In this document: piece after piece, positions 11,602-34,237 of the stretch
How positions within the stretch are numbered: the stretch's first letter is position 1
Layout: each line of letters begins with the position of its first letter
DNA from: an archaeon
GTDB lineage: Archaea > Iainarchaeota > Iainarchaeia > Iainarchaeales > 1-14-0-10-31-34
Reading direction: 5' to 3'
Assembly (NCBI GenBank): GCA_043815885.1
Contig: JBDRIL010000061.1
Span: 1 to 41,302, forward strand
Length of the DNA: 41,302 nucleotides
Position numbers and translations under genes: made by a program
The notes under the pieces: model-generated
Databases searched by the model: none
What the model saw: the letters and a program-made list of their open reading frames with translations, nothing else
What the model was told of the DNA's origin: nothing

Positions 11602-13997
11602 TTACTTCTTTTTCCTCATTTTGGCTTCTTTTTTTGCAATAACCAGCTTCATTTTCACTATTGAATCAGGATTCAATGAAATTGAATCAATCCCCTGCCC
11701 AACTAAAAATTCCGCAAATTCAGGGAAATCGCTTGGCGCCTGCCCGCAAATCCCAATCTTTTTTTTCTTCTTTTTTGCTGCCTTTATGGTCATTTCAATT
11801 AATTTCTTTACTGCCTCATTTCTTTCATCGTATATATGTGAAACCAGGCTTGAATCCCTGTCCAAACCCAAAGTCAATTGAGTTAAATCATTCGAACCAA
11901 TAGAAAACCCGTCAAAGATATCAGCAAACTCTTCCGCCAGAAGTGAGTTGGAAGGAATTTCGCACATAACATATACCTCCAATCCATTTCTTCCTTGAAC
12001 CAATCCATTCTTCTTCATTTCTGCTATTGATTTCTTCCCTTCTTCCACTGTCCTGCAGAATGGAATCATTACTGTTACATTAACTAAACCCATTTCCTCT
12101 CTCACTTTCTTTATTGCAGCACACTCTAAAGCAAACCCCTCTCTAAAGGCAGGAGAATAATACCTTGAAGCGCCTCTCCAGCCGATCATTGGGTTTTCTT
12201 CCTTTGGTTCTGAACTCCTCCCCCAACAAGGTTAGCGTATTCGTTGGTTTTGAAATCAGACAGCCTAATGATTACGTCTTTTGGATAAAAGGCAGCAGCA
12301 ATCATAGACACTCCCTCAGCAAGCTTATCAATAAAGAACTGCTTTTTATCCTTATAACCTTTAGTGATTTCCTCAATCTCTTTTTTTACTTTCTTGTCTT
12401 TCAATTTATTGAAATTAATTAATGCAATCGGATGCACTTTAATGTAGGAACTGATAATGAATTCCTCTCTCGCTAACCCTACCCCGTCATTCGGAATAAA
12501 GCTTAACTCAAACACCTTTTCGGGATTGCCTATATTCATCATTATCTTTGTTCTTGTTTTAGCTAATTTCTTTAAATCAGTCCTCCTTATACTGAAATCA
12601 AGCAATCTATCATAAATAATCCCTTCCTTTCCTCCACTGCAATCAACAGTAACATTTCTTCCATTAGGAATGGCTCTCGTTCCATTATTAGTTCCAACAA
12701 CACACGGAATTCCCAGCTCTCTACTTATGATTGCGGAATGGCAGGTGCGGCCGCCTTTATTTGTTACAATTGCTGAAGCAATCTTCATTATTGGTTCCCA
12801 GTCTGGATCAGTGATATCAGTAACCAGTACTTCGCCTTTCCTGAATAAACCTATTTCTTTTGGGCTCTTAATTATATGTGACTTTCCTTTTCCAATCTTT
12901 TCTCCAACGCTAATGCCTCTTGCAAGCACCTTCCCTTTTGCCTTTAAACGATATTCTTCCAGTAAATTCTCGCTCTTCGCTGCCTGAACTGTTTCAGGCC
13001 TTGCCTGAACAATGAATAATTCTCCATTCTTTCCATTCTTTGCCCACTCGATATCCATTGGCTTTCCATAGTGTTCCTCAATAACACAGGCCCATTTTGC
13101 AAGCAAAGTTATTTCTTTATCATTTAAGGAAAATTTTTCCCTATCTTTTTTCCCTACTTCAACTTTCTTTGTCGGTTTAGTGGATTTATTTGAATAAATG
13201 ATTTTTGTTTTCTTTTCTCCAAGAGTCTTCTTCAAAATAGGTTTCTTTCCTTTTTTCAGTGTCGGCTTGAATACAATGAATTCATCTGGGTTAACGCTTC
13301 CCTGAACAACACTTTCTCCCAGCCCCCAGGAAGAATTAATCAGCACCACATTCCTGAAACCAGTTTCAGTATCAATTGAAAACATGACCCCGCTTGAAGC
13401 AAGGTCAGATCTAACCATTTTCTGCACTCCAACAGAAAGATAAACAGAAAAATGACCAAAGCCCTTATCTGTCCTGTAAGAAATGGCCCTGTTTGTGAAA
13501 AGCGAAGCAAAACACTTCTTCACAGCTTTCAGTAATTCTTTCTCTCCCCTTATATTCAGAAAGCTTTCCTGCTGCCCGGCAAAACTCGCTTCAGGCAAGT
13601 CCTCAGCTGTAGCCGAACTCCTTACAGCAACATCTGTATTCTTTCCATATTCTTTCTCCAATTTATTGTATGCATTTACTATCGCTTTCTCTAAGTCGTT
13701 CGGAAGCTTTTCTTTCAGAATCATTGTTCTAACGCTTTGCCCTTTTTTCGTTAAGTCTTTCATTTTATGCGTATTCAATCCCTTTAATTCCTTTTTAGCT
13801 TTATTCCATAAACCAGTTTTATTCATAAAATAATTATAAGAATAAGCAGTTACAGCAAAACCATTAGGAACCTTTATTCCCTTAGAGGAAAGCTTTCTGT
13901 ACATCTCTCCGAGAGATGCATTCTTTCCTCCAACCATTCCTACGTCCTTGATTCCAAGCTGATTAAACCATAGAATGAATTCTTTTTTCTTGCTTAT
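11602..13997 (-). pseudogene. ppsA: Phosphoenolpyruvate synthase, disrupted (frameshift at about 12210-12232; conserved N-terminus lacks a canonical start codon)
   Basis: ORF 12186-13937 carries [56 protein letters not shown]. The -1 frame resumes [17 protein letters not shown]...GSNDLTQ...ICGQ (11602-12210). The repaired gene would be about 798 aa. Could be an assembly error. Confidence 0.85.
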
Positions 13998-19581: not shown

Positions 19582-21546
19582 TTATTTTGCCTTCAATAAT
19601 CCTTCCAATGAATCAGGGTTGCTTAGAGTGGAAGTGTCCTTTATTTCTTCTCCTAATACCTTTGCCTTAATCAGCCTTCGCATGATTTTTCCACTTCTGG
19701 TTTTGGGAAGGTCATCCACAAACCATATTTCATCTGGGCGAGCAATCTTTCCGATTTCTTTTCCCACATGCTCTCTCAGTTCCTTCTTCAATTCATCACT
19801 TTCTTCAATTCCTTTCTTTAATACAACAAATCCAACCAAGCACTCTCCCTTTATTTCATGCTTTTTTCCGATTACTGCTGCCTCTGCCACTTTTGGGTGG
19901 CTTACTAAAGCAGATTCAACTTCTGCATTTCCAATCCTGTGGCCGGCAACATTCAGTACATCGTCACTCCTTCCCTGAATCCAGAAATAGCCGTCATCAT
20001 CAATCCTTCCCATGTCTCCAGTGAGGTAAACTCCTTTATACTCACTCCAATATGTTTTCATGTATCTCTCCGGGTTCTTCCAGAGGCCTCTAAGCATTGC
20101 AGGCCAGGGCTTCAGTAATACAACCTTGCCTCCGGCATTCCTTATTGGTTTTCTGTCCTTATTGAATACGTCTCCGGTAATTCCTGGAAATGGTTTAGTT
20201 GCTGAACCAGGCTTTAATGGAGTAATAGGCAAAGGGCTAATACAGAAATTGCCTGTCTCTGTCTGCCACCAGGTATCCATTATCTGGCATTTCTCTTTTC
20301 CAATATACTTGTAATACCACACCCATGCCTCTGGGTTGATTGGTTCTCCCACAGATCCAAGCAATCTCAAAGAACCTAAATCGTGTTTTTCCGGCCATTC
20401 CTCTCCTAGCTTCATAAACATTCTGATTACTGTAGGGGCAGTGTAAAGCAATGAAACCTTATACCTGTCAATTATGCCCCATATCCTGTCAGGCTGAGGA
20501 TAATCTGGAACGCCTTCATACATTACGCTTGTGGTTCCTAAAATAAGCGGGGCATAAACAATATAGCTGTGCCCAGTAATCCATCCAATATCAGCAGTGC
20601 ACCACCATATATCTTCCTTCTTTACATCAAAAACCCATTTTAAGGTAAGAGCTATCCCTACAGCATAACCTCCATGGCAATGCAGAACTCCTTTTGGTTT
20701 TCCTGTAGTCCCAGAGGTATAAAGAATAAATAAAGTATCATTTGCATCCATTGCTTCTGTCTTGCATTCCTCTTTCTCTCCATTAATTACTTCATTCCAC
20801 CATAAATCTCTCTTTTCATTCCAGGCAATCTTTTCTCCAATTCTCTTAAACACTATTACCTTTTTTACAGAAGGGGCTTCCTTTAATGCCTCATCTAACT
20901 GGCTCTTTAAATCAACTACTTTTCCTCTCCTGTAATACCCGTCACACGTAATTGCAATCTTTGATTCTGCATCATTCACCCTGCCCCTGAAAGCCTTTGC
21001 ACTGAAAGCAGAAAAAACAACTGAATGAATTGCTCCGATTTTTGCGCATGCAAGCATTGCAATAGGCAGTTCAGGAATCATTGGAAGATAAATGCTTACC
21101 CTGTCTCCCTTCTTCAACCCCAGTTTCTTCAATGCATTAGCCAGTTTATTTACCTGTACAGAGAGCTCCCTGAAAGTAATCTTTCTTACCTCTCCTGGTT
21201 CTCCTTCCCAGATATATGCAATCTTATCCTTGTTTTCATTCACTGCATGCCTGTCCAGTGCGTCTCTTACAATATTGTATTTCCCTCCAACAAACCATTT
21301 AGAGTAAGGCTCTTTCCATTCAAGTACGCTTTTGTATGGTTTGATCCAGTTCACTGTTTCTTTTGCTGCCTCTCCCCAAAACCATTCAATATCCCTGGCC
21401 TTCTCCAATAATTCATCATAGCTCTTTATTCCTTTCTCCTTCATCCACTTCATCACATTGCTCTCTTCCACCAACTCAATTGAAGGAGTGAAGATTCTTT
21501 TCTCTTTAAGCAAAACCTCTAATTCCCTGTCAATTCCTTCGTTCAT
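19582..21546 (-). CDS. acs: Acetate--CoA ligase (AMP-forming acetyl-CoA synthetase)
   Basis: [61 protein letters not shown]. Confidence 0.96.
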
Positions 21547-21854
21547 GACTGATTCCTTCTAACCTTTATTTCTCTTCCCAAAAACACAAAAACACATGCC
21601 AGTAGATACCATATAATTAAATTAATAAAAAAGTTTGCCCATGAAAGACTCATTCCTTCCATACAGCCCCATATCCCAAGACAGTAAATCCTTCCAACAG
21701 GATAAAACTCTAAAGGCCATCCCACAAGAATCATTCCAAATAAAGCAAAAGTTTTCTTAATCAGGAAATAATTTACTGCAGCAAAAACCAGGAAAACCAA
21801 AACCTTGAATAAACCCGGCTTAAAAAAATTCTTCCAGTCCATTCTTTCACTCAA
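21543..21854 (-). CDS. Small membrane protein, translationally coupled to acs
   Basis: Hydrophobic segments, GWP motif and a Cys pair; stop overlaps the acs start (ATGA). Confidence 0.65.
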
Positions 21855-22202
21855 TTAACCTTCTTTCAGGAACCTCTTCCAAACCCCAATCTCGAGTTCT
21901 TCCTTCAGATAATTACTGTATTCCTTGTTCAGTTTATCAACTTTGAATGCAATAATGCATGGTTTGGTGTAGGAATGCAGTTTCCTTATTCTTTCCACTA
22001 CCCTCTTGTGATTCTTTTCAATTGTCTTTGCAATCATTACTACTTCCCTGTCTTCCTCTATTTTCCCTTTCCACCAGTACATTGAATCGATTGGAAAGAA
22101 GTTCGCACAAGCAATCAAGCTCCTCTTCAATAAATCCCTTGCGATCTTTTTCGCTTCCTTCAAATCCTGGCACGGAACATAAAACAACAGCATTTTAGGC
22201 AT
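21855..22202 (-). CDS. cutA: Divalent-cation tolerance protein CutA
   Basis: EAKKIA..LL..LIACAN, SMYWWKGKIE, E..MIAKT, LHSY..PCII; SD GGAGGT before the ATG at 22202. Confidence 0.92.
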   Translation of the reverse strand: MPKMLLFYVPCQDLKEAKKIARDLLKRSLIACANFFPIDSMYWWKGKIEEDREVVMIAKTIEKNHKRVVERIRKLHSYTKPCIIAFKVDKLNKEYSNYLKEELEIGVWKRFLKEG

Positions 22203-22320
22203 TAAATGATTACCTCCAAAAACAAACAATTACAATAAAGAAAGAAAGAAGTATAAATAAATTGCTGTTTTCCTGAAAAAACAAAAGCCTTTTATTTAGG
22301 AATTCCATTATTATTTTATT

Positions 22321-22986
22321 ATGTGGACTGCAAAGATGAAGTTCTGGCATGCTTATTCATTGGTTATTAATAGGGCAAAGAAATTTAACCTAACTATCCT
22401 GGCTTTTCCGATGAATACCTATGTAAAGGGAAAGAAGGCGCATTTAACTACCGGGCACTTGGTGATTGGAGAGGAAAAAGCAAAACAAGCCTACTTTGAT
22501 TCACTGAAAAAAGACAAGAGAATAAAGAATTTAGAGATTGAAGGAGACTTTGCTGCTTACTCCTTTGAAGCCTCAATGAAAGAAAGCCATCTGCAGATGT
22601 ATTTCACTCCAGAAATAATGTTCATTAAACCAGTCGTAATAAAGCCAGACGGATTTGAGTACATAGAGATTGCTTCCTGGAACAAGGAAAACCTGACTAA
22701 CTTCTTCAAAAAGGTAAAGAAATGGCTGAAGATTGAATCCTTTAGCATTAAAAATGAAAAAATAACTGATATTTACATTCCTCACTTAATGCCAAAACTC
22801 ACAGAAAAACAAAAGAAAGCAGTTCTCTTGGCTTTTCAGAACGGCTACTACGATTACCCAAAAAAAGTAAATATAGGAAAACTAGCAAAGGCAATGAAGC
22901 TTTCCCCCTCTACTTTTCAGGAGCATTTAAGGAGAGCAGAAGAAAAACTAATGCCTTTCCTGCTTGAAAACCTTCTCTCACGATAA
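22321..22986 (+). CDS. HTH_10 (bacterio-opsin activator-type C-terminal HTH) transcriptional regulator
   Basis: C-terminal LTEKQKKAVLLAFQNGYYDYPKKV..LAKAMKLSPSTFQEHLRRAEEKL is the HTH_10 signature. Probably leaderless (TATA-like TTTTATTT about 30 nt upstream). Confidence 0.9.
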   Translation: MWTAKMKFWHAYSLVINRAKKFNLTILAFPMNTYVKGKKAHLTTGHLVIGEEKAKQAYFDSLKKDKRIKNLEIEGDFAAYSFEASMKESHLQMYFTPEIMFIKPVVIKPDGFEYIEIASWNKENLTNFFKKVKKWLKIESFSIKNEKITDIYIPHLMPKLTEKQKKAVLLAFQNGYYDYPKKVNIGKLAKAMKLSPSTFQEHLRRAEEKLMPFLLENLLSR

Positions 22987-22993
22987 GCTAAAA

Positions 22994-23028
22994 TACCCCG
23001 TTATTCATCGGGTAAATTTCTTTAAATA
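22994..23028 (+). promoter_or_regulatory. Palindromic operator TACCC-N11-GGGTA immediately upstream of TATA box TTTAAATA
   Basis: TACCC (22994-22998), GGGTA (23010-23014), TATA at 23021-23028; directly downstream of the HTH_10 gene. Confidence 0.6.
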
Positions 23029-23090
23029 CCAAAGCCCCCAATTATATTAACAAGTTAACTCAAACGAGTTAATTTGTCGGTGGGGAAATA

Positions 23091-23432
23091 ATGGCAGCTC
23101 CTTTGAAGCTTGTTGAAGCAAAAAACATTGAACTTACAGTTGAACCAGATAAACTACAGTACCAGACAAGGAAAGAACTAGGAAGAGAGTACTTTAAATG
23201 GCTTGCAAGAATAGAAGGCCTTAAAGCAAAGTACTATGGTTTTGTTGCAATTGACGCATTAGTTTTATTTGCCGCATTCATAATTGATTTATCACTAATG
23301 TTTGCACTTATTGTGCTTATTCCAATGACTTTAAAGGCACAGTTTGATTATGGAGACAAGCTTGATGACAAACAAATTTGGGAAGGAAAATATGTTACAA
23401 GGGTTGACTGCTTTGAGTCAAGCCCTGAATAA
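23091..23432 (+). CDS. Small membrane protein A (paralog of 23452-23838)
   Basis: Hydrophobic hairpin; shares P..LQ..R..GR.YFK and KA.F.Y...K.V.R.D with the next ORF; SD GGTGGGG. Confidence 0.75.
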   Translation: MAAPLKLVEAKNIELTVEPDKLQYQTRKELGREYFKWLARIEGLKAKYYGFVAIDALVLFAAFIIDLSLMFALIVLIPMTLKAQFDYGDKLDDKQIWEGKYVTRVDCFESSPE

Positions 23433-23451
23433 ATAGGAGGTGAATCTATAA

Positions 23452-23838
23452 ATGGCCTACGTGATGATTCATGGAGAAACCACCGATATTAACTTTGACC
23501 CAAAACAGCTTCAGAGATGGAAGAGGGATAAAGTTGGAAGAGACTACTTTAAAATGAAGTCCACTGAGTTATTCAGATGGATTGTGTTCTGGATAATTCT
23601 AGCAGGATTTGCCTTTTTTGCATTGCTTTCCTTTGCTGAAACAGCATTTATGATTCCTGCCATTATATTGTTTTTTGCCATGGTTAAGGCTCATTTCTGG
23701 TATTTGAAGGCGTGGAGTAAATGGAACAAATTTGCAAGAAAAAGTGTAGTGAGAATGGATCTCCCGAAAGAGGACAGGGTGATCGTTCCTCCAAAAATGC
23801 CTTGGGTTCCCTTAAAGGGAGTAAGAAAAGGATTATAG
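23452..23838 (+). CDS. Small membrane protein B (paralog of 23091-23432)
   Basis: Strong SD GGAGGTGA; hydrophobic hairpin; motifs shared with the previous ORF. Confidence 0.8.
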   Translation: MAYVMIHGETTDINFDPKQLQRWKRDKVGRDYFKMKSTELFRWIVFWIILAGFAFFALLSFAETAFMIPAIILFFAMVKAHFWYLKAWSKWNKFARKSVVRMDLPKEDRVIVPPKMPWVPLKGVRKGL

Positions 23839-23864
23839 TAAAGGATTCAGTCTTTCAGGTAAAG

Positions 23865-23880
23865 GCAAAACCTTTATTTA
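23865..23880 (+). promoter_or_regulatory. Possible internal BRE/TATA promoter for the phospho-His gene array
   Basis: GCAAAACC-TTTATTTA (TATA-like 23873-23880), similar in style to the promoter before 22321. Confidence 0.4.
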
Positions 23881-23933
23881 TCCCAAGGCCTTATATTCAA
23901 AGTATTGGATAGTTATAGTTAGGTTGAATTAAA

Positions 23934-25451
23934 ATGAAGCTAAGCGTTCTCGCGAAAGATATAGGTTCCCCTTTAATGCATCCGGCTGCTTATGCTATAG
24001 GAGAAAACCATTCAAAACTGGAAAAACTGCTTGGAATCAAGATTGCAAAAAGCTTTGAACAGTACAGGAACAGGGACCTAAGGTTTCTTTTCACTGAAAA
24101 AGCATTCTTAAGGGAAGAAAAAAGAACAGCGCAGTTATTGCAGAGCAAGGCATTCTTCAATAAAGTGGAAAAAAATAGCCTTCACTCAATTAATAATTTA
24201 TTGGCTGAAGCAATGAAAGCAGGAAAAAATCCAGAAAGACTCTCAAACAAGCAGATTGCAACTCAATTCAATAAATTATTTAATTCATGGATTGAAATGA
24301 ATTTCTGGGGCCATGTGGTAAATCTTTCTGATTTCCACTTCAATGTATTAAGCGATAAATTAATCAATGCACTTGAAGAAATAAAGAAAGAAAAAAACAT
24401 TAAGCTTTCAGTTGGAAAGACTTTCTCTAAATTAATAGTAATGAAGAAAAAAACAGAAATCCAGAAACAGGACATTAATTTCTTTAAACTCCTTTCCATG
24501 ATTCAAAAAAACCAGGAATCCATTGATTTATTTAAATCAGGCTTGAATGAAATACAATCCAAATTAAAGCATTTCCCAAAAATAGAAAAGGCAATAAAAA
24601 GCCACACAAAAAAATACGACTGGATGCAGTATCATTATGATAGCCAAATAATCCTTGATGAAAACCATTTCATTGAACTGTTCTCTGGTAATGTAAAGAA
24701 GGGATTGAAGGGAGAAAAGAAATTAAGGGAATTCAGGGAACACGATAAAAAATCCTTGAGTGAAAGAAAAAAATTGATTAAAGAACTTGAACTGGATAAG
24801 GAATTTCTTTACTGGCTGGAAGTTGCCCAGAGCTTTATGTACTTAAAGGCCTTAAGAAAAGAAGTATCCTTCCAATCAAACAGGCTTGCCCATCCACTTA
24901 TTTGCGAAACATCCAAAAGGCTTTCAATAAGCCCAACCCAGTTAAGGCATTTAACTATAGAGGAATTAATTGAAGCCTTGGAGAAGAATAAAGTAAATGT
25001 TAATTTATTGAATGAAAGGATTAAGCACTGCATTGTTTCAGCCGAAAAAGACAGGCTGGTTATTATTTCAGGAGATAAAGCAGAAAAATTCAGCAAGAAA
25101 ATCAAGGGAACTGTGTTAAAAAGAATAAATGAAATCTACGGTACAGTAGCCTACCCTGGTTTTACTCAGGGAATTATAAAAATAATTGAAAAACCCGAAG
25201 ACATGGCTAAAATGAATAAAAAAGACATTCTTGTTTCTTCTGCCACAAACCCCAACCTTCTTCCAGCAATAAGGAAGGCAGCAGCAATAATTACAGATGA
25301 AGGAGGAATCACCTGCCATGCAGCAATTGTAAGCAGGGAATTAAAAATCCCCTGTGTAATTGGCACAAAGATTGCAACAGAAGTCCTTAAGGATGGTTCA
25401 TTGGTTGAAGTGAACGCAACCCATGGAAAAATAAAAATATTAAAAAAGTGA
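23934..25451 (+). CDS. Dikinase substrate-binding + phospho-His swivel subunit, paralog 1
   Basis: About 390-aa helical N-region plus C-terminal PEP-utilizer mobile domain: TNP..AAAIITDEGGITCHAAIVSRELKIPCVIGT. Confidence 0.85.
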   Translation: MKLSVLAKDIGSPLMHPAAYAIGENHSKLEKLLGIKIAKSFEQYRNRDLRFLFTEKAFLREEKRTAQLLQSKAFFNKVEKNSLHSINNLLAEAMKAGKNPERLSNKQIATQFNKLFNSWIEMNFWGHVVNLSDFHFNVLSDKLINALEEIKKEKNIKLSVGKTFSKLIVMKKKTEIQKQDINFFKLLSMIQKNQESIDLFKSGLNEIQSKLKHFPKIEKAIKSHTKKYDWMQYHYDSQIILDENHFIELFSGNVKKGLKGEKKLREFREHDKKSLSERKKLIKELELDKEFLYWLEVAQSFMYLKALRKEVSFQSNRLAHPLICETSKRLSISPTQLRHLTIEELIEALEKNKVNVNLLNERIKHCIVSAEKDRLVIISGDKAEKFSKKIKGTVLKRINEIYGTVAYPGFTQGIIKIIEKPEDMAKMNKKDILVSSATNPNLLPAIRKAAAIITDEGGITCHAAIVSRELKIPCVIGTKIATEVLKDGSLVEVNATHGKIKILKK

Positions 25452-26980
25452 CTCTTATGAAATGGGTTAAAATAAATGAAGACCACAATGTATATGTTTT
25501 TCCTTATTATTTGTTCGCGAGATGCTGGGGAAAGAGAATAAAGCCAATGCTGGGGGAGAACTATGACAACATTCAATTGGTTTTTAAGGGTTCAACCTGC
25601 TGGTACTACGGAGAACCAACCCAATATGAAAGGTTAGGAAAGAAGGTTTTCGAAAAAATACTGAAAGAAAAATTCGATTATAAATTCGATGCAGAGACAA
25701 GAAAGCACTTGGAAAAAGTAATAAAAAAATCTGATTCTCTCTTAAAGACTGACTTCAGCAAAAAAAGCAATAACGAATTGGGAAGAATTTATTTAGATTT
25801 CTCTAATTTAATTGAGGAATTAAATTCCTGGGGGCAGATGGTAAGCATAATGGAGTATGGCCATAACAACTTTGTTTCAGGCGGTTTGGAAGAATACCTG
25901 GCAGAACAGGCAAAGAAACTGGATTTAAGCACTTCTTTCGCTAAAGACACATCTGTAATGATCACCCCCACAGAAGAAACCTTTATGAGAAAGGAAAGAA
26001 GGGAAATTCTGGATTTAGCCAAAAAAATTTCTTCCAGAAACAATGCATTCAATGAATTCACTAAAAAACCGGAAGAAATACTGAAGAACCTAAAAAAATA
26101 CCCTAGAATAAAGAAAAAAATCGAAGAAATAAACAAGAAGTATTGCTGGATTGCTTTTGGTTACATTGGTCCAGCATTAACTGAAATCAATTTCATCAGA
26201 GAACTCCAATCAGTTCTTGCCTCAAAGAAAACCGTTGCAGAACAGAAAAAAGAATTTGAGAATGAATTCAAGGAGATAGAATCTCTTCAGCATGAATTAG
26301 AAGAAGGGTACAAGGTAAATAAGGAATTCAGGAGAAGGTTTGAGGTTGCAAGAAAATGCATGTTCTTGAAGGAATACAGGAAACAGGGATTATTCAAAGC
26401 CTTTTATTCCCTGGAAAAACCCCAGAAAGAAATTGCAAGGAGATTATCCATTTCATTGGAACAACTCAGAACCCTTCTTCCGGAAGAAGCATTTGAAGCA
26501 TTAAAGAAAGGAAAAATTTCTGCAAGTGAATTGAATTCAAGGCTGAATCTGTGTGTTTTTGTGGTTAAAAATGGAAATACCTTTGTTGCTTCGGGAAAAA
26601 AGGCAGAAAAACTGGCAAACAAATTCCTAAGCGAACAGAAAAAATTTGCAAAAATAAAGGAATTAAAAGGCAATTGTGCTTCTCCAGGAAACGCAATAGG
26701 AAAAGCAAAAATCGTTCTAGGAACTTCTCACCTCTACAAACTAAAACAAGGAGACATTCTTGTATCAATCCAGACAAACCCGCAAATGGTTCCCTCTCTT
26801 AAAAAGGTTGCAGCCATTGTAACAGATCAGGGAGGAATAATCTGCCATGCAGCAATAATCAGCAGGGAACTAAAGATTCCCTGTGTAATCGGAACCAAAG
26901 TAGCCACAAGCGTAATAAAGGACAACCAGATTGTAGAGGTAAATGCAACTGACGGAATCGTAAAGGTACTGAGGAAGTGA
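25448..26980 (+). CDS. Dikinase substrate-binding + phospho-His swivel subunit, paralog 2
   Basis: TDQGGIICHAAIISRELKIPCVIGT; GTGA overlap with paralog 1 (alternative ATG at 25457). Confidence 0.85.
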   Translation: MTLMKWVKINEDHNVYVFPYYLFARCWGKRIKPMLGENYDNIQLVFKGSTCWYYGEPTQYERLGKKVFEKILKEKFDYKFDAETRKHLEKVIKKSDSLLKTDFSKKSNNELGRIYLDFSNLIEELNSWGQMVSIMEYGHNNFVSGGLEEYLAEQAKKLDLSTSFAKDTSVMITPTEETFMRKERREILDLAKKISSRNNAFNEFTKKPEEILKNLKKYPRIKKKIEEINKKYCWIAFGYIGPALTEINFIRELQSVLASKKTVAEQKKEFENEFKEIESLQHELEEGYKVNKEFRRRFEVARKCMFLKEYRKQGLFKAFYSLEKPQKEIARRLSISLEQLRTLLPEEAFEALKKGKISASELNSRLNLCVFVVKNGNTFVASGKKAEKLANKFLSEQKKFAKIKELKGNCASPGNAIGKAKIVLGTSHLYKLKQGDILVSIQTNPQMVPSLKKVAAIVTDQGGIICHAAIISRELKIPCVIGTKVATSVIKDNQIVEVNATDGIVKVLRK

Positions 26981-26987
26981 AAGAAAA

Positions 26988-28439
26988 ATGGAATGGATTG
27001 AATTAACCAGAAAGGGGAAACCACTTCCTATATTATTGATTGATGCAGCAGCAATGGGCTTCAATAACCATTTCTCAGAATTCCACGACAAAAAAACCAG
27101 AATAACTAATTTCAGGCAGGCATTTGGAGCAAGGTGGATGCCAAAAAAAGACTGGAATAATTACGTAAGGGTTTACAGAGCGAACGAAGACAAGATTATT
27201 TTTTGGATGGATTTATGGCTAAAGCAATTCCTTGAATTAAAGAGATTCACTGAAAAAGTAAACAAAATGAATTTAACAAATAAATCCAGCAATCAATTGA
27301 AGCAGTTATTCAAAAAATACTTTGAATTGAATTCTAAGGCGTGTTCTTTTGCATACGATTACAGGGCGGTGGGGGAAGTCTATCCGGAAAAAATAAATTC
27401 ATTCCTGAAAGAAAAAGCAAAAGACTCTAAGGAATTGAATGAGTGCATTAAAACAATCTTCTCTTTGGATAAACCAATTGAAATGCACAGAGAAAAAATG
27501 AATTTACTGAAGATTGCAATAAAATCAAAGAGAGTAATGCTTAAAGGCAAAGGAATTGAAAATGCATTGGAAAACCATTCCAAAAGATTCGGTTTTTTGG
27601 GGACGTATATTTTTTACGGGGAACCAATTGAAGCAAAGGATTTTAAGAAAAAATTAAAGAACTTGGCTAAAAAACCTCTCTCCAAATTAGAAAAAGATCG
27701 GCTCAAGGAAAAGAACCGCTTTAAGGAAAACAAAAAAGAAACAAAGGAAATAATTAAAAAATTCAGGCTCTCAAAAAGCGAGGCAAGAAAGATAAGAGAC
27801 ATTAAGGTTTCACTTCACACTTCAATGATCTGCGATGAATACTATACCTACACTTCTTTCAAGATAAGGCCATTGCTTTTTGAAATAGGAAAACGCTTCA
27901 GCCTTTCATATAACCAATTAATTGAAATGAGGAATGAAGAAATTCTTTCCTTGTTTGAACGCAAGCTGAATAAAAGGGAATTAAATGAAATTAATTCCAG
28001 ATTCAAGGATGCTGCAATAATCCTTGAAAAAGGGAAAACCAAAGTCATTACAGGAAAAGAGCTTGAATTGTACTCCAAACCTTATCTAGCTGAAATGAAA
28101 AAAATAAAGGGATTAAATGAAATTAAAGGGGAAACAGCTTTTCCGGGAAAAGTAAAGGGAAGGGTAAACATTATTGGAAGAGTCACAGACCTTCCCTCAT
28201 TCAGGAAAGGAAATATTCTGGTTACTGGGTCTACTCTCCCCCAGTATGTTCCTGCAATGAAGAAAGCATTGGCTATAATTACAGACGAGGGGGGAATGCT
28301 GAGCCATGCAGCAATAATGAGCAGGGAATTCAAAAAACCCTGCATAATAGGGACAAAAATTGCAACAAGAGTATTGAGAAATGGAGATTTTATTGAGGTA
28401 AATGCTTCTGGAGGAATTGTCAGGAGGATAAACAAATGA
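26988..28439 (+). CDS. Dikinase substrate-binding + phospho-His swivel subunit, paralog 3 (most divergent)
   Basis: TDEGGMLSHAAIMSREFKKPCIIGT; 483 aa. Confidence 0.85.
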   Translation: MEWIELTRKGKPLPILLIDAAAMGFNNHFSEFHDKKTRITNFRQAFGARWMPKKDWNNYVRVYRANEDKIIFWMDLWLKQFLELKRFTEKVNKMNLTNKSSNQLKQLFKKYFELNSKACSFAYDYRAVGEVYPEKINSFLKEKAKDSKELNECIKTIFSLDKPIEMHREKMNLLKIAIKSKRVMLKGKGIENALENHSKRFGFLGTYIFYGEPIEAKDFKKKLKNLAKKPLSKLEKDRLKEKNRFKENKKETKEIIKKFRLSKSEARKIRDIKVSLHTSMICDEYYTYTSFKIRPLLFEIGKRFSLSYNQLIEMRNEEILSLFERKLNKRELNEINSRFKDAAIILEKGKTKVITGKELELYSKPYLAEMKKIKGLNEIKGETAFPGKVKGRVNIIGRVTDLPSFRKGNILVTGSTLPQYVPAMKKALAIITDEGGMLSHAAIMSREFKKPCIIGTKIATRVLRNGDFIEVNASGGIVRRINK

Positions 28440-29968
28440 GTAAAAAACATGATTGGTTTATTGCTGAAGAAATTTCCAGAACGCACTATCATTTGCTTGA
28501 ACCAGTTTTAAATTATTGGGGGAACTACTTAGAAAAAGACATTGGGATAAAATTAAACGTAATGGCAGTTTTCAGGAAAGGAGACATGTGCATTATTTGG
28601 GGGAGAAAAAAATTCACGGAAGCCGGAAAAAGAATGTTAAAAAAAACTCTTGATAACCCAAAATGGTTTTTGAAAAAGGACAGCGACTTGGAAAAAACAG
28701 CAAAAGAACTAATTAAGTCTTCAAAAAAACTGCAAAAAACCGATTTCTCTAAATCATCAGATGAACAACTAGAAAAAATTTTTTCAAAACACATGGAAGT
28801 GCACTTCAAATGTCATGTATTGGGCATGCCCATGACAATCATTGAATGGGAGCATGAACTTTTGACAAATTACTTAACAAATTATTTGAATAAAAAAATC
28901 AAAGAAAAGAATATTCCATTAAAGGCAAGGGGGGCTTTTAGTTTATTGACAACCCCCATTAAAGATTCCTTTCAGTTAAAAGAAGAAAAAGAGGCCATTA
29001 AAGTGGCTTTAAAGATTTTAAAAGATAAAAAAATCAAACAACTTTTCATAAAAGAAAAACCAAAAGAAATAATTGAATTATTGCCTTCAACAAACAAAGA
29101 AATTGATAAAGAAATCCATTCCCTTCACAAAAATTATTCATGGTTGCCTTACATGTACATTGGTCCAGCATGGGAAAAGAGTTACTTTATTGAACAAATA
29201 AAAAATTTATTGAGAGATGAAAAAGAATTGCCAAGGCTATTGGAAAAAATGAATAATAGAGTGAAGGAAGTTAAACAAAAGCATAAAAACTTATTTAAGA
29301 AACTTTCAATTGATAAAAAGCATCAAATTCTTTTACGAATTTTAAGAGAGAATGTTTATTTAAAAGGATTAAGAAAAGACTCACTTTACTTCTCTTTTTA
29401 TTCCTATGAACCCTTACTTAAAGAGATTGGAAGAAGGCTTCATCTCTCCTTAAATCAATTAAGGTTTATGTGGCCAAGTGAATTCAGGGAAGCCATTTTA
29501 GAAAAAAAATTTGATCCAGATGAATTAAACGAGAGATACAAATTTAGCGTTTACGTTTGCATTAATGGAAAAGACAAAACAGTGACTGGGAAAAAAGCTG
29601 AATTTTACGAAAAACAAATCCCTAACCCAAAAGATTATAAAATAACTGAGTTGGAAGGAAGCACAGCTGTTCCGGGGATGGTTAAAGGGGTTGTTAAGAT
29701 TATTAATGTTCCAGAAGACGTATCTAAAATGAGAGAAGGAGATGTAATGGTCAGCCATTCAACTAACCCTAATTTAGTTCCTGCAATGAAAAAAGCTGGA
29801 GCAATCGTTACAGACATTGGGGGCATTACTTGTCATGCCGCAATCGTTAGCAGAGAGTTAAACATTCCCTGCGTAATAGGCACAAAGATTGCCACAAAGG
29901 TATTCAAGGACGGGGACCTAATTGATGTAAATGCAAATCACGGCATTGTAAAAAAGGTGAAGAAGTGA
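28436..29968 (+). CDS. Dikinase substrate-binding + phospho-His swivel subunit, paralog 4
   Basis: TDIGGITCHAAIVSRELNIPCVIGT; ATGA overlap with paralog 3. Confidence 0.85.
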   Translation: MSKKHDWFIAEEISRTHYHLLEPVLNYWGNYLEKDIGIKLNVMAVFRKGDMCIIWGRKKFTEAGKRMLKKTLDNPKWFLKKDSDLEKTAKELIKSSKKLQKTDFSKSSDEQLEKIFSKHMEVHFKCHVLGMPMTIIEWEHELLTNYLTNYLNKKIKEKNIPLKARGAFSLLTTPIKDSFQLKEEKEAIKVALKILKDKKIKQLFIKEKPKEIIELLPSTNKEIDKEIHSLHKNYSWLPYMYIGPAWEKSYFIEQIKNLLRDEKELPRLLEKMNNRVKEVKQKHKNLFKKLSIDKKHQILLRILRENVYLKGLRKDSLYFSFYSYEPLLKEIGRRLHLSLNQLRFMWPSEFREAILEKKFDPDELNERYKFSVYVCINGKDKTVTGKKAEFYEKQIPNPKDYKITELEGSTAVPGMVKGVVKIINVPEDVSKMREGDVMVSHSTNPNLVPAMKKAGAIVTDIGGITCHAAIVSRELNIPCVIGTKIATKVFKDGDLIDVNANHGIVKKVKK

Positions 29969-31500
29969 GCAGAGAAAATGACTGGTTTTCAATGGAGTCA
30001 CTTAGAAGAATTAGTCCATTCCATTTAGTCGGCTTTTTCAGGCACTGTTGCGTTGATTTGAATGAGCTTTATGGAATAAGGCTTGATGGGGCCTGCTCTT
30101 TTCACGGAAAGAACACCGAGCTTCTCTTCAACAAAAACCAATTCAATAGTGCAGCAAAAAAATCACTTAAAATAATAATTAAGAATCCAAAAATAATGGT
30201 TGATGAACACAATAAATTAATCAGGGCAGCCAACAGATACAAGAAAGCTGCACAGAGAATTCTTAGAACTGATTTAAAGAAGCTTTCAAAAAAAGGGCTT
30301 GCAGATTTATGCACTGAATACGCAAAAGCATATCATGCTTCCCATGGAAGGTATGGAGGCCACTTGCTTCAGCTAACGGAATTTGAGAACGAGTTATTTA
30401 CTAAATTCATTCATTCCATTTTAGAGAAAAAAATTAGGAAACACAATTTAACTGAATCTGTGGGAGAAGCTTTTGCGCTTGTTTCGACCCCAGAAAAACT
30501 CACAAACATTCAAAAACAGGAAATTGAATTATTCAATCTTTATTTAGAGTTACTGAAAAAACCTAAATCGCTTAAATTCTTCAGAAAGCATTCAGAAAAA
30601 GAAATAGAAAAAAAGCTCTCTTCTTTGGATTCATCTTTTTCAAGAAAAATTAACAGACACTGCAATAAATGGCTGTGGCTTCCCTATATGTATGAAGGCC
30701 CTCCCTGGGAAAAGAGTTACTTTATTGGAGTTCTTTCTTCCATGGCAAGACAGTACCTCACTGAATCAGAAGTAAACCTAAAAAAAGGGGAATCAAAGGA
30801 ATTAATTAAAAGAAAAAGGGGATTCATGAAAAAACTCCCTTTAAATGAAAAGGAAAAGATTTATTTCAAGTTATTGTCTGATTCTGTTTACCTCAAGAGC
30901 TATAGAAAGGATGTAATGTATTATGCGTGTTTTGCTTCAGAGAAATTATTTTCCGAGGTTGGAAGAAGGTTATTTCTTTCCTTAAACCAGGTAAGGCATT
31001 TCATTCCAGGAGAAATAAAACAAGCAATCCTCTCAAACAAATTTTCAATTCAAGAATTAAATAACAGGATTGATTTTACTGTAATTAAATGGATTAACGG
31101 AAAAGAAGAAATTTTAACCAAAGAAAAAGCAAGAGCTTTTTTCAACAAAGTATTCAAATCAATGAAGATAAAAAAAGTAAATAAATTAACTGGAAGCACT
31201 GCTGTTCCAGGCAAAGTTAAAGGAACAGTGAAAGTAGTCAATCATCCAAATGAAATCTATAAAATGAATAAAGGGGATGTAATGGTCAGCCATTCAACTA
31301 ACCCTAATTTAGTTCCTGCAATGAAGATTGCTTCAGCAATCATTACAGATGTAGGAGGAGTTACTTGTCATGCAGCAATTGTAAGCAGGGAATTAAACAT
31401 TCCATGCATTATCGGAACAAAGGTAGCCACAAAGATATTCAAGGATGGAGACAAAGTTGAAGTGAATGCGACAAAAGGAATAATAAGGAAATTGAAGTAA
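29965..31500 (+). CDS. Dikinase substrate-binding + phospho-His swivel subunit, paralog 5
   Basis: TDVGGVTCHAAIVSRELNIPCIIGT; GTGA overlap with paralog 4. Confidence 0.85.
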   Translation: MSRENDWFSMESLRRISPFHLVGFFRHCCVDLNELYGIRLDGACSFHGKNTELLFNKNQFNSAAKKSLKIIIKNPKIMVDEHNKLIRAANRYKKAAQRILRTDLKKLSKKGLADLCTEYAKAYHASHGRYGGHLLQLTEFENELFTKFIHSILEKKIRKHNLTESVGEAFALVSTPEKLTNIQKQEIELFNLYLELLKKPKSLKFFRKHSEKEIEKKLSSLDSSFSRKINRHCNKWLWLPYMYEGPPWEKSYFIGVLSSMARQYLTESEVNLKKGESKELIKRKRGFMKKLPLNEKEKIYFKLLSDSVYLKSYRKDVMYYACFASEKLFSEVGRRLFLSLNQVRHFIPGEIKQAILSNKFSIQELNNRIDFTVIKWINGKEEILTKEKARAFFNKVFKSMKIKKVNKLTGSTAVPGKVKGTVKVVNHPNEIYKMNKGDVMVSHSTNPNLVPAMKIASAIITDVGGVTCHAAIVSRELNIPCIIGTKVATKIFKDGDKVEVNATKGIIRKLK

Positions 31501-31516
31501 ATGTTTAGGAGGTATT

Positions 31517-32461
31517 ATGATGCAATTTGTTTCGCCTTTTAGTAAGCTGAACAGAAGCAGTGTGTCAATTGCCGGAGGAAAAGGAGCACAGTTGGGAGAG
31601 ATGTACAGTAAAAAAATTCCTGTTCCGAATGGTTTTGCTGTATTGACTGATTCATTCAATTTATTCTTAAAGGAAAATAAATTGGAGGAAGCAATAGAGA
31701 AAGAATTGAAGAAAGTAAATGCAAAGAAAACTGATTCAGTGAATAATGCCTCAAAAAAAATCCGTTCAATGATTGCAAGAGGAAAAGTCCCAAAAGAAGT
31801 GGAAAAAGCAATTCTCCAACAATTCAATGAATTGAAAGCAAAATATGTTGCTGTAAGGAGTTCTGCTACAGCAGAGGATGCAAAGGATGCTTCCTGGGCG
31901 GGAGAACTTGAAACATATACAAATGTAGTGAAAAAGGATTTAGTGGAAAAAGTAAAAACCTGCTGGGGTTCATTGTTTACCCCCAGAGCGATTTTTTACA
32001 GGATAGAGAAAAAACTGAAAGGAAAAGAAGTGAGTGTAGGGGTTGTTGTCCAGAAAATGATTGAATCAGAGGTAAGTGGTGTAGCATTTACAGTTAACCC
32101 AGTAACCAATAATGAAAATGAAATAATTATTGAGGCAGCCTATGGTTTGGGAGAGAGTGTTGTAGGAGGAACGGTAACCCCAGACAGATACACTGTAAAT
32201 AAAAAAGAGAATTTCATTGAAAACATTGAAATAAATGCACAGGAAAAAATGATTACATTAGTGAAGGGAAAAGAAAAAGAAATAAAGGTAAAGGATTCAG
32301 AGCAGGAAAACCAAAAGCTTTCAGGAGAGCAAATAATGAAGTTATCTGAAATGTGCAATAATATTGAAAGAATCTATAACTTCCCTCAGGACATTGAGTT
32401 TGCTTTGGAGAAAAATAAGTTCTTTATTCTCCAAACCCGCCCAATAACAACTCTTAAGTGA
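31517..32461 (+). CDS. Stand-alone PPDK/PEP-synthase N-terminal ATP-grasp subunit
   Basis: AGGKGAQLGEM, VPNGF, VAVRSSATAED, SWAGE, VVVQKM, SGVAFT, GLGESVVGG..PD, QDIEFA; ends LQTRPITTLK* with no His domain. SD AGGAGGT. Confidence 0.9.
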   Translation: MMQFVSPFSKLNRSSVSIAGGKGAQLGEMYSKKIPVPNGFAVLTDSFNLFLKENKLEEAIEKELKKVNAKKTDSVNNASKKIRSMIARGKVPKEVEKAILQQFNELKAKYVAVRSSATAEDAKDASWAGELETYTNVVKKDLVEKVKTCWGSLFTPRAIFYRIEKKLKGKEVSVGVVVQKMIESEVSGVAFTVNPVTNNENEIIIEAAYGLGESVVGGTVTPDRYTVNKKENFIENIEINAQEKMITLVKGKEKEIKVKDSEQENQKLSGEQIMKLSEMCNNIERIYNFPQDIEFALEKNKFFILQTRPITTLK

Positions 32462-32465
32462 ATTT

Positions 32466-33071
32466 TTAAATGAATCCAAGGCGCTTTAATTCTTCTCTCA
32501 ATTCAGGAACTGACCTGAATTGAATTGCGTGAATCCCTAGATTAGCTGCAGGAGGAAGGTTTTCTTCATGGTCGTCCACAAAAACACATTTATCTGCTTT
32601 TACTCTCAATTCCTTTAACATCATTTGATATATTTTTGCATTGGGTTTCGTTACTCCATATCTTCCGGAAACAGCCTTTACATCGAATATTTCATCCAAA
32701 CCGAATTTCCTTTCAAACAACTTATACGCTTCCCAGTTAAGGTTAGAGCACACGCCCACTAACCGATTCTTCCTTAATTCCCTTAATAATTCCTTGAAGC
32801 CAGGCCTCATAAATATTTCTTCTGTATAGAATTCCCCTGAAAAAACCACTCCTCCCAGATCAAATACCACTGCTGAATCCAGATAGAATTTCCTGTAACC
32901 TCTGACAATAATAACTACAAAAGAAGCAATAATATAGGTTGCAACCAGAATTACTGCCAATTCATATAAATTCTGAAAATTGAATCTTCCGGTTGAATAA
33001 AGAAAGGCTATAAAGACAAAAGTAAGCAGTACTCTCGACAATGAAAGCCTGAAAAAACTCCTTAACTGCAT
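32466..33071 (-). CDS. Membrane-anchored HAD-superfamily hydrolase (YihX-like motifs, little or no cap)
   Basis: Two N-terminal hydrophobic segments; FDLGGV (motif I), CSN (II), KP (III), FVDD..EN (IV). Confidence 0.8.
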   Translation of the reverse strand: MQLRSFFRLSLSRVLLTFVFIAFLYSTGRFNFQNLYELAVILVATYIIASFVVIIVRGYRKFYLDSAVVFDLGGVVFSGEFYTEEIFMRPGFKELLRELRKNRLVGVCSNLNWEAYKLFERKFGLDEIFDVKAVSGRYGVTKPNAKIYQMMLKELRVKADKCVFVDDHEENLPPAANLGIHAIQFRSVPELREELKRLGFI

Positions 33072-33127
33072 TTGAACTCAAAAGAATAATAGTAGAAGTG
33101 TTATTTTAAGTTTTACCTAAATCGCTC

Positions 33128-34237
33128 TTAAGGCAGGAAATCCTTTGATTTGATTTTTTCAGGGAGATACGTTTCAGTAATAAACCTTATTCCTTTCTTG
33201 CTTAAGGCTTCCAATTCCAGCTTTATTTCTCTTTCCTTCATTAACTTGAATTCCTGCTGCCATTCCTTTTTCTTGAACCATTCATATTCTTTCATTTCGT
33301 TTAATCTTTTTACATCCAGTTTATTTAATTTAATGGTTACTTCTTTTGGAATCTTGAATGTATCAACATCACTCACTGTCAATCCAATGTATTTAGTGCT
33401 GGGGGTAGCTAACTTTTCCTCAGAATAACTTAGAGAAATTGACCCTTGCTTTATTACAGAATAAATATACATCCCCCAAGGGTCAGCATCCATTAAGGCA
33501 TATACAGGCAATTTTTCTTCTCTGTTCAGTCTCTGCACAAACCTTCTTTCCGCCCTGGAAGGCTGGCCTCTTCCAGTAATAATAATGCATTTATTCTTCT
33601 TCCAGAACAAGTCTTCATTAAACCTCTTCCACACAGCATCCTTTTCAATGAACAACACATATTCAGCATCAATGTCCTTTATCTCTATCCTGTCAGGTTC
33701 AACATTTGACGGAACCCCCCATCCACCTGAACCCATTTTATTTAAATCAATTGTATCCTTTCCGTCCTTTATCTTCATATTCCCAGTAATAACTCCCTTG
33801 GAGGAAGCAGAAAGATGAAGTTCTTCCCTTAAAAGATTCAAAGAAGCTTCAATGTCCTCCACAATTGGATCACTTTCACTCTGATCTTCGAACGTGTTCT
33901 CATTTGTTCCCTCTATTGTATGCTTTAATGCATAATATAAATCCCTGATAGAAATCGTTGCTTTTTCATCAATCACTTTCCTTATCTCTGATGCAACAAG
34001 CATTGTCTGCATAAACTTTCTTGTATGAGCAATATTAAGGAACTGCCTTGAACTCTTCTTATCCCCAAGCTTGATTGTTTTACTGTTCTTATCAAAATAA
34101 ATATTTCCTAAAGTCCTTACAGGCAATTCATAGGATGGATTCTCCCCGTTCATTATCTGTTTATAGATTGATTTTCCCGCCCCAGCAAGTTTTTCCTGTA
34201 CTTCCTTGTCCTTATCCTTCCCCGACTTATTTGCCAT
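33128..34237 (-). CDS. top6A: DNA topoisomerase VI subunit A
   Basis: SIRDLYY (catalytic Tyr), FEDQSESD, IEKDA, GRGQP, DADPWG, KLELEAL. Confidence 0.96.
   Translation of the reverse strand: MANKSGKDKDKEVQEKLAGAGKSIYKQIMNGENPSYELPVRTLGNIYFDKNSKTIKLGDKKSSRQFLNIAHTRKFMQTMLVASEIRKVIDEKATISIRDLYYALKHTIEGTNENTFEDQSESDPIVEDIEASLNLLREELHLSASSKGVITGNMKIKDGKDTIDLNKMGSGGWGVPSNVEPDRIEIKDIDAEYVLFIEKDAVWKRFNEDLFWKKNKCIIITGRGQPSRAERRFVQRLNREEKLPVYALMDADPWGMYIYSVIKQGSISLSYSEEKLATPSTKYIGLTVSDVDTFKIPKEVTIKLNKLDVKRLNEMKEYEWFKKKEWQQEFKLMKEREIKLELEALSKKGIRFITETYLPEKIKSKDFLP

Follow-up and report, generated by a model that had tools for sequence, protein, structure and literature searches.

What unites five diverged kinase-like proteins and a single ATP-grasp subunit encoded side by side in a small archaeal genome, and do the genes around them belong to the same system? 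The block that raises this question lies on contig JBDRIL010000061.1 of an Iainarchaeales archaeon (assembly GCA_043815885.1), analyzed over its full 41,302 nt (hereafter the window; contig C61 of genome G000, with G, C, L and f prefixing our labels for genomes, contigs, loci and families). The genome comprises 1.16 Mb in 62 contigs and is 91.7% complete. Ten genes lie between cutA and top6A, nine of them co-oriented (an HTH_10 regulator, the small membrane proteins M1 and M2, the dikinase-like proteins K1 to K5 and the ATP-grasp subunit GRASP) and one convergent, encoding a phosphatase of the HAD family. An earlier note on this DNA had described nine same-strand genes and a convergent HAD gene ending 4 nt from the ATP-grasp gene, and our open reading frame (ORF) calls agree throughout. 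We judge it likely, with moderate confidence, that these genes act as a single conserved unit under transcriptional control, with a one-to-many two-component dikinase at its core that works on the cytoplasmic side of the membrane. What the data show directly is the gene content, the homologies, the co-occurrence of the genes and a cis element that is conserved.

The five K proteins (483-511 aa) each end in a phospho-histidine swivel domain, PF00391, which is their sole Pfam match (E about 1e-22 to 1e-23), preceded by some 400 residues that match no Pfam family. All are encoded on the plus strand. K1 (23934-25451, 505 aa; PF00391 E 2.3e-23) combines an N-terminal domain resembling the RIF-binding domain of rifampin phosphotransferase (RPH) with a swivel bearing the histidine motif GGITCHAAIVSRE, and is followed by K2 (25448-26980, 510 aa; E 7e-23), whose NCBIfam alignment with RPH spans residues 607-864. 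K3 (26988-28439, 483 aa; E 1.2e-22) is the paralog without the basic LKxxRK motif considered below, K4 (28436-29968, 510 aa) is the paralog chosen for structural modeling, and K5 (29965-31500, 511 aa; E 3.8e-23) closes the series. The genes are tightly packed, with 4-nt overlaps at K1/K2, K3/K4 and K4/K5 and gaps of only 7 nt between K2 and K3 and 16 nt between K5 and GRASP. The motif GG.(T/L)(C/S)HAAI.SRE is present in all five window paralogs, and all 45 aligned members of the K family keep its swivel histidine; GGxT(S/C)HAA(I/V)(I/V)(A/S)R is the catalytic-histidine motif of phosphoenolpyruvate (PEP) synthase, RPH and HpeH (PMC12167813).

A K-family profile built from the 45 members aligns to residues 445-866 of RPH-Lm (E 4e-34). 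An AlphaFold2 model of K4, built on the 45-member alignment (mean predicted local distance difference test, pLDDT, 93.6), leads to the same protein: a Foldseek search puts the RPH-Lm structures 5fbu, 5fbt and 5hv1 at the top of its list (E 5e-14 to 3e-13; alignments of about 466 columns), with TM scores of 0.52-0.56 normalized by query and identities of 14-18%. In the profile alignment the LKxxRK motif of the K family overlies Y-R666-E667-Y-P-K670 of RPH and places basic residues opposite Arg666 and Lys670, the two residues that hold the phosphate of rifampin phosphate (PMC4844700). The RK pair is kept in 35 of 45 K members, and the position of Glu667 is variable.

GRASP (31517-32461, plus strand, 314 aa) is a stand-alone ATP-grasp (PPDK_N) subunit, matching PF01326 at E 2.5e-99 and carrying no PF00391 swivel domain. 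Along its whole length it aligns to the N-terminal domain found in PEP synthases and in proteins of the RPH type (residues 2-313 in the alignment to NF041857), scoring 264.5 bits against NF041857 where the K proteins score 50-73 bits and the model cut-off is 999. The PEP/pyruvate-binding TIM barrel PF02896 is absent from K1 to K5 and from GRASP; the only other PPDK_N domain in the genome belongs to a separate, ordinary PpsA (11602-13937), which has it. Taken together, the homologies of the K proteins and the separate GRASP point to the two-component dikinase architecture of HpeHI, CreHI and PpsAB. Judged by their sequences, K1 to K5 are the half of rifampin-phosphotransferase-like two-component dikinases that holds the substrate domain and the phospho-histidine swivel. 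The earlier note had already taken the kinase array for a split dikinase, and the Pfam domains, the RPH profile alignment and the match of the K4 model all concur.

The ordinary PpsA gene itself, on the minus strand, is broken into two ORFs (583 and 195 aa) with a 4-nt overlap. A conserved PpsA motif runs on in the second frame upstream of the ATG of the second ORF, which places a frame change near a G run at about 12215-12225; a sequencing error, a pseudogene and a genuine frameshift are all possible explanations.

The enzyme kind is already known. HpeHI of Rhodococcus, CreHI of Corynebacterium and the phenylphosphate synthase PpsAB of Thauera have a separate ATP-grasp subunit, as here, and a second subunit that joins a RIF-binding-like domain to a C-terminal swivel histidine in the context GGxT(C/S)HAA, as in the K proteins; they convert ATP to AMP and Pi through a pyrophospho-histidine, a route presumably shared here by analogy (PMC12167813). 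Relative to RPH-Lm (5FBS, 5FBT, 5FBU, 5HV1), the K fold corresponds to the RIF-binding and swivel domains and GRASP to the N-terminal domain, but RPH is a single three-domain chain where separate genes are found here, and scores remain far below the NCBIfam cut-offs for RPH. PEP synthase and pyruvate phosphate dikinase (PPDK) share the ATP-grasp and swivel domains, and it is there that the K swivels score best (8a8e, E 7e-52); unlike those enzymes, the K proteins have no PEP-utilizers_C TIM barrel and carry the swivel at the C terminus. The differences from HpeHI, CreHI and PpsAB lie in stoichiometry, size and setting: five H-type subunits per I-type subunit here (1 to 8 or more elsewhere) or fusions with three to four K units, K proteins of about 500 aa against an HpeH of 71 kDa, a small-genome archaeal host with no aromatic catabolic genes in the module, and a dedicated HTH_10 regulator, M proteins and a membrane-anchored HAD. 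In public records, proteins 55-58% identical to K4 are labeled Candidatus Micrarchaeota archaeon.

With five K genes and one stand-alone ATP-grasp gene in the genome, a single ATP-grasp protein probably loads phosphate onto five carrier enzymes. Single-chain proteins of family f10, in the same phylum, bear on this, comprising one PPDK_N domain with four swivels (2388 aa), one with three (1839 aa) and the arrangement K-GRASP-K-K (1994 aa); with one ATP-grasp joined to three or four K units, such chains speak for several K units sharing a single ATP-grasp domain. The giant genes, whole dikinase batteries in one chain, are located at L062:2964-10130, L063:4576-10095 and L064:3-5984. An exhaustive search with the N-domain profile returned 6728 cluster representatives (clustered at 50% identity) at E<=0.001 and 2295 at E<=1e-30, many of them carrying two to four N-domains per protein.

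The paralogs themselves appear to be old and retained. Window K proteins share 18-33% identity in their N-domains against 48-72% in their swivels, and in a maximum-likelihood tree of the 45 K proteins K2, K3, K4 and K5 each group with orthologs of other genomes at a support of 100 (K2 with G005 and G039, 100/100; K3 with G008 and G005, 100/100; K5 with G008, G007, G005 and G039, 100/99). It is this combination of deep N-domain divergence with supported orthogroups that argues for paralogs both ancient and kept; K1 has no close ortholog among the relatives sampled in the tree. Arrays vary in content and order, from two K genes in G007 to five in G008, where a K5-type gene precedes a K4-type gene, and five or more in G005. 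A K gene in G003 that seemed broken was discounted as such, the interruption being a run of N in the record with no visible frameshift.

Whether the neighboring genes travel with the array was asked of nine genomes of the window's family, this one included, and of 215 genomes of the phylum, 64 of which contain the K N-domain. Five of the nine family genomes have the block at this site. Besides the window, G003, G007 and G008 show HTH_10-M1-M2, five, two and five K genes respectively, GRASP, a convergent HAD gene and then top6A-top6B-KH-RIO; cutA borders the other side in G007 and G008, as in the window, and is not adjacent in G003. The fragmented assembly G005 has cutA, HTH_10 and M1-M2 in that order up to a contig end, with M2, four or five K genes and GRASP on two other contigs. 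The remaining four genomes (G001, G002, G004 and G006) retain RIO-KH-top6B-top6A and the pair of cutA and the acetyl-CoA synthetase gene (ACS), and fill the interval differently: a lone 81-aa ORF in G004, an AlkD-like gene and small ORFs in G001 and G006, and six unrelated genes in G002. These four encode no K N-domain and no M protein anywhere in their genomes and no HAD ortholog (best E 1e-5 to 1e-9, with partial coverage and at other places), and an HTH_10 match is missing from G001, G004 and G006 and only partial in G002. That the HAD gene is gone from top6A where the array is missing argues that these genes form a module. The earlier note had named, as the outcome that would speak against a module, a HAD gene still linked to top6A in array-less relatives and partners that do not co-occur with the kinase genes; what we found is four genomes that keep top6A without HAD.

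Outside the window's family the same components recur in other orders. G174 has HTH_10-M1-M2-K-GRASP-HAD in one direction and G170 the same with two K genes, while G104 shows M-K-HAD-GRASP and G016 M-HAD-K-K. In four genomes of family f20 a minimal module, HTH_10-M-HAD-K, lies between top6A and either cutA or ACS, which is also where the block of the window sits (L056 in G094, L057 in G103, L058 in G082, L059 in G084), and a 2.6-kb contig of a fifth f20 genome, G091, shows only M-HAD-K. Because a minimal module occupies the same site in a second family, the locus looks old; it looks to have expanded in the window's family, with HAD inverted, and to have been lost from four of its genomes. Comparison of the cutA-top6A interval in relatives, as the earlier note had proposed, finds the block in five family genomes, this one included, and the minimal module in four genomes of f20. 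Its description of an accessory block between cutA and top6A holds for the position, and "accessory" needs refining, in that the block is not simply an insertion. Its expectation that regulator, membrane pair and HAD accompany the kinase genes is borne out by counts of 28 of 33 for M, 13 of 14 for HAD and 10 of 15 for HTH_10, each of which is detailed below.

M1 (23091-23432, plus strand, 113 aa) and M2 (23452-23838, plus strand, 128 aa) match no family in Pfam or NCBIfam. The single long hydrophobic stretch of each (residues 46-85 in M1, 38-85 in M2) is compatible with a two-helix hairpin, and the two are distant paralogs (BLASTP E 5e-7) with a common layout: about 40 conserved residues at the N terminus, then the hairpin, then a conserved C-terminal segment with R.D at its end. 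No relative of M2 reached a score of at least 0.9 in the Atlas search. Across the phylum the M family has 33 matches in 17 of the 215 genomes, and 28 of these are clustered with a K gene; of the other five, two are at a contig end, one is beside a swivel-only fragment, one is 2.5 kb from a K gene, and one, a weak match interrupted by stop codons, is in a genome without K. K-M1-M2 triads with no regulator, HAD or GRASP nearby occur at L065:3136-5133 (G008:C2) and L066:4240-6477 (G007:C60), both adjoining an AlaX-like (tRNA_SAD) gene.

The convergent gene (32466-33071, minus strand), whose stop codon is 4 nt from that of GRASP, encodes a membrane-anchored HAD-IA phosphatase of 201 aa. PF00702 (E 3.3e-17), PF13419 and TIGR01509 exceed their cut-offs; the best NCBIfam match, TIGR02247 (E 2e-19), scores 70 bits, below its cut-off of 125, and NF006991 matches at E 1.7e-10. 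Fourteen module-linked HAD orthologs all have an N-terminal hydrophobic anchor, formed in the window protein by helices at residues 5-27 and 34-60, and conserve the HAD motifs I-IV (D71, S/T109-N110, K142 and D166-D167), with D71, N110, N112, S135, K142, D166 and D167 invariant. The second aspartate, the general acid/base two residues after the nucleophile, is not conserved, being Gly in 12 of the 14, Asp in one and Ser in one. Escherichia coli YihX, an active glucose-1-phosphatase, likewise has Gly at this position. Basic residues before helix 1 and after helix 2 would, by the positive-inside rule, put the catalytic domain in the cytoplasm, in which case all soluble parts of the module would face the cytoplasm. 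Among the 14 best HAD matches in the phylum other than the query (E<=1e-20), 13 are beside K or GRASP and one is beside M; weaker matches cover only the catalytic core and are located elsewhere. A TFB-recognition element (BRE)/TATA-like word, GGTAAAACTTAAAATAA (33101-33117, minus strand), 30-46 nt upstream of the HAD start, suggests that the gene may have its own promoter.

An unrelated phosphohydrolase shows a similar association. In all seven of its phylum matches, from five families, an HD-domain protein of about 185 aa is encoded directly upstream of a K gene (for example at L047:1504-2055, L045:7442-8035 and L042:14394-14963, with four more places), providing a second pairing of the writer/eraser type with K genes. 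A published precedent for a dikinase clustered with a phosphatase is that of HpeHI and HpeD (PMC9618137). As here, the Hpe cluster keeps a dikinase together with a HAD-type phosphatase; the closest characterized homolog of HpeD is NagD, and HpeD acts on a later intermediate, after a carboxylation step (PMC9618137); here no intermediate enzyme is encoded. More generally, Hpe and Cre clusters encode transforming enzymes (a carboxylase, a P450 and others) and a soluble phosphohydrolase, HpeD or CreD, whereas the module here encodes no such enzymes and its phosphatase is membrane-anchored.

The block opens with the gene for the HTH_10 transcription regulator (22321-22986, plus strand), a protein of 221 aa with an N-terminal alpha/beta domain of about 150 aa and a C-terminal helix-turn-helix that matches PF04967 at E 5.6e-21 (74.5 bits, cut-off 23.1). 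In its model (pLDDT 86.8) residues 153-221 resemble sigma region 4 and LuxR helix-turn-helix domains (Z 7-8). For the N-domain (residues 1-154) the best structural match is Ta1207 (5m86; Z 8.4, root-mean-square deviation 3.6, 143 residues); Foldseek and VIA-align found no known sensor fold of the GAF or PAS type, only Ta1207, and the domain has no Pfam family. The regulator has no other homolog in this genome. Full-length homologs in 40 relatives number 15, of which 10 directly precede M or K genes; four of these are regulator-K pairs that lack M. A paralog with 38% identity at L048:6390-8724 (G003:C12) directly precedes genes for a PHO4 phosphate transporter and a PhoU-like protein.

The spacer between the regulator and M1 contains a candidate operator, the palindrome CCGTTATTCATCGG (22998-23011; pattern CCGWT-N4-AWCGG). 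It abuts a BRE/TATA-like element, GGGTAAATTTCTTTAAATA (23010-23028, plus strand), the presumed promoter of the M1-M2-K operon. The arrangement is conserved: in every one of the 11 spacers aligned, which come from seven families, the palindrome is followed by GGTAAA and then a TTTAAA-like word, and G174, G170, G008 and G005 have two copies of the palindrome. The pattern matches once in the window, where 0.03 matches are expected, and that is its only match in the whole 1.16-Mb genome (reversed control, 0). Scanning 67 loci yielded 17 further sites in 13 loci, each directly upstream of an M or K gene. In two of the regulator-K pairs the palindrome precedes the K gene, and in G005 it stays with M1 despite two genes inserted after the regulator gene. 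This insertion (L052:6000-7737, G005:C118), on the opposite strand, comprises a DUF6036 nucleotidyltransferase-like gene and a 407-aa gene without known family.

A TATA/BRE-like element before the regulator gene, AAAAGCCTTTTATTT (22283-22297, plus strand), recurs in the same words before HTH_10 in G007 and G008 and in similar form in G003, and may serve as its promoter. Between M2 and K1 there is a TATA-like word, AAAACCTTTATTTATC (23867-23882, plus strand), with similar words in the M2-K spacers of G008, G003 and G007, which might function likewise. A second inverted repeat, GTTAACTC-N4-GAGTTAAT (23054-23073, plus strand), separates the TATA-like box from the start of M1, in what is presumably the M1 leader. 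It folds as RNA at -14.0 kcal/mol within 23040-23090 and is found only in this genome, G003, G039 and G174, with both arms changed in G039; an RNA hairpin and a second operator are both conceivable readings of it. A scan for bacterial promoters and terminators found fewer sites than in shuffled sequence and is uninformative for archaeal DNA.

We hypothesize that the HTH_10 protein would bind the palindrome at 22998-23011, next to the TATA-like box, and so control the operon from M1 and M2 through K1-K5 to GRASP. With ATP as donor, GRASP would pyrophosphorylate every K protein on its swivel histidine; loss of the gamma phosphate would leave AMP and Pi, as in PpsAB, HpeHI and RPH, and each K protein would then move the phosphate from its histidine to a hydroxyl of its own small-molecule substrate, held in the diverged RIF-binding-like domain. 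M1 and M2, as hairpins with conserved cytoplasmic ends, and HAD, with its two-helix anchor and its catalytic domain inside, may place this chemistry at the membrane, where HAD would take the phosphate off again, whether from the products themselves or at the stage of a later intermediate. The cycle of phosphorylation and dephosphorylation, its control by a ligand and the nature of the substrates are what we infer from these parts. Most likely the module captures or otherwise handles several hydroxylated compounds that can cross the membrane or are bound to it.

Several observations weigh against a single module of this kind. A kinase and a phosphatase acting on one substrate would be futile unless separated by a step or a compartment, and no such step is encoded in the module. 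The supposed phosphate-holding site is not universal either: K3 lacks the equivalents of all three RPH residues Arg666, Glu667 and Lys670, with LKxxRK replaced by S..CDE in all three members of its orthogroup, and a second orthogroup is likewise without the basic motif, each having acidic residues instead that are conserved within the group. Four f20 genomes with the minimal module (completeness 72-88%) have no stand-alone ATP-grasp, their PPDK_N domains occurring only in PpsA/PPDK-type frames of 566-1393 aa, so the K protein there must be charged otherwise; it may be charged in trans or, like HpeH on its own (PMC12167813), may transfer phosphate from one small molecule to another. The remaining points concern control. 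Five of the 15 HTH_10 homologs are elsewhere, next to PHO4/PhoU genes, a periplasmic binding protein, an RFC-like ATPase or a thioredoxin-like gene, or three genes from K. HAD may lack co-regulation here because it is convergent, has its own TATA-like word and is not preceded by a palindrome. Finally, in many genomes of the phylum the degenerate palindrome occurs at background frequency, close to that of the reversed control, so that the evidence lies in its conserved position and not in its count. Its use as a genome-wide marker was dropped, as across the phylum it is often no commoner than the reversed control. In G015, G169, G172, G173 and G214 it is far above that control (7-12 against 0-1), and in G015 none of the sites is inside the stretch of the K array that was examined (L035).

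The same genes could be read in other ways. It is conceivable, though unlikely, that they form an inducible inactivation battery, in which the K proteins and GRASP phosphorylate and disarm several antibiotics or toxins sensed by the regulator, and HAD and the M proteins have some other duty at the membrane or salvage metabolites phosphorylated by mistake. RPH is after all the closest solved relative, and RPH-like genes of ultra-small bacteria have been counted as rifamycin resistance genes (PMC8651080); paralog sets that differ between close relatives, the absence of the block from four family members, and a dedicated regulator with an operator candidate would all be expected of such a battery. 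However, the phosphatase conserved in the module would undo the inactivation, no K protein reaches the cut-off of any RPH model (50-73 bits against 999), Glu667 of the RPH site is not conserved, and none of the 10 block proteins has a PADLOC match, which leaves a defense-system reading unsupported. Still less probable, in our view, is a membrane cycle of lipid or polyprenol phosphates, in which K proteins would phosphorylate lipid alcohols such as polyprenols or archaeol-type cores, with the anchored HAD as the matching lipid-phosphate phosphatase. The HAD anchor and the M proteins would put the system at the membrane, and the best NCBIfam match of HAD is to TIGR02247, an epoxide-hydrolase N-terminal-like phosphatase group whose animal members hydrolyze lipid phosphates; that match is nevertheless well short of its cut-off (70 bits against 125). 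A mainly hydrophobic RIF-binding pocket in RPH (PMC4844700) would also suit lipid substrates, but five or more diverged paralogs are hard to fit to a few lipid species. PcrB, a CarS-like protein and two UbiA-type proteins are encoded, so there is no obvious need for lipid salvage, and gene loss lends the idea no support.

Catabolism of the Cre or Hpe kind, in which a phenolic growth substrate is phosphorylated, transformed and dephosphorylated, seems very improbable. Clustering of the same kind of kinase with a HAD-type phosphatase recalls HpeHI and HpeD (PMC12167813, PMC9618137), yet the conserved module includes no carboxylase, P450, dehydrogenase or CoA ligase at any mapped locus, and the genome is 1.16 Mb in size. 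The palindrome, through which transforming enzymes encoded elsewhere might be co-regulated, occurs once in it. The least credible account makes HAD, and perhaps the regulator, a neighbor by chance, with HAD belonging to top6BA on the same strand, where it is 52-66 nt downstream of top6A in G000, G003 and G008. This is already contradicted by the four family genomes that keep top6A without a HAD ortholog there or elsewhere, and by G174, G170, G104, G016 and five f20 genomes, in which HAD lies inside the M/K operon.

Returning to a membrane-associated dikinase module, it is tempting to speculate, if only tentatively and against the odds, that it lets a symbiont capture compounds at the expense of ATP, as a counterpart of group translocation made of soluble enzymes. 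K proteins docked on M1 and M2 would then form a battery at the inner face of the membrane, intercepting compounds that enter through it or reside in it and trapping them irreversibly through dikinase phosphorylation; the anchored HAD, or the HD enzyme in other lineages, would release them. The set of K paralogs would define which host or community metabolites a small-genome archaeon can harvest, and the HTH_10 regulator would switch the system on when such compounds appear.

The two-component dikinase subfamily was recognized only in 2025, and solely for aromatic catabolism in free-living bacteria (PMC12167813), and such genes have appeared in print as PEP synthase or among rifamycin resistance genes (PMC8651080). 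Our literature search turned up no paper describing the arrays or their partners. What is new here is a conserved HTH_10 regulator with a positionally conserved operator candidate, the M family, an anchored HAD subfamily (or an HD enzyme in its place), and a site shared by two families. A 1.16-Mb archaeal genome thus has a one-to-many dikinase battery with a fixed set of partners, themselves conserved across many families of the phylum, and one operator candidate, one regulator and five enzymes offer experimental handles on an unexplained and abundant trait of ultra-small microbes.

As to the surroundings, the block is flanked by cutA (21855-22229, minus strand; PF03091) and top6A (33128-34237, minus strand), and genes in the window for topoisomerase VI, eRF1, eIF-1A and an S-layer protein mark the organism as an archaeon. 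The GC content of the block, 33-37%, is similar to that of its flanks. No block protein matches an integrase family in Pfam or NCBIfam, no prominent direct or inverted repeats surround the block, and no tRNA genes were found in the window, in keeping with the earlier note, which had seen neither an integrase nor terminal repeats. The sole strong repeat in the block is the 300-nt swivel-coding segment, present in five copies with 60-77% identity. A mobile element was rejected on these grounds, integrase, flanking repeats and tRNA all being absent and the same site being occupied in two families.

Between the acetyl-CoA synthetase gene and cutA the window has an unrelated 103-aa ORF of no family (21543-21854, minus strand), where relatives carry a CoA-ligase-like gene of about 470 aa. 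The flanking topoisomerase genes vary as well. TOP6B, 581 aa in the window, reaches 1086-1638 aa in several relatives (L021:2349-5702, L023:16362-19838, L041:5803-9063 and L040:10321-17943), and TOP6A of G002 is 901 aa long, with its match to the query split in two; these large insertions in top6A and top6B are possibly inteins.

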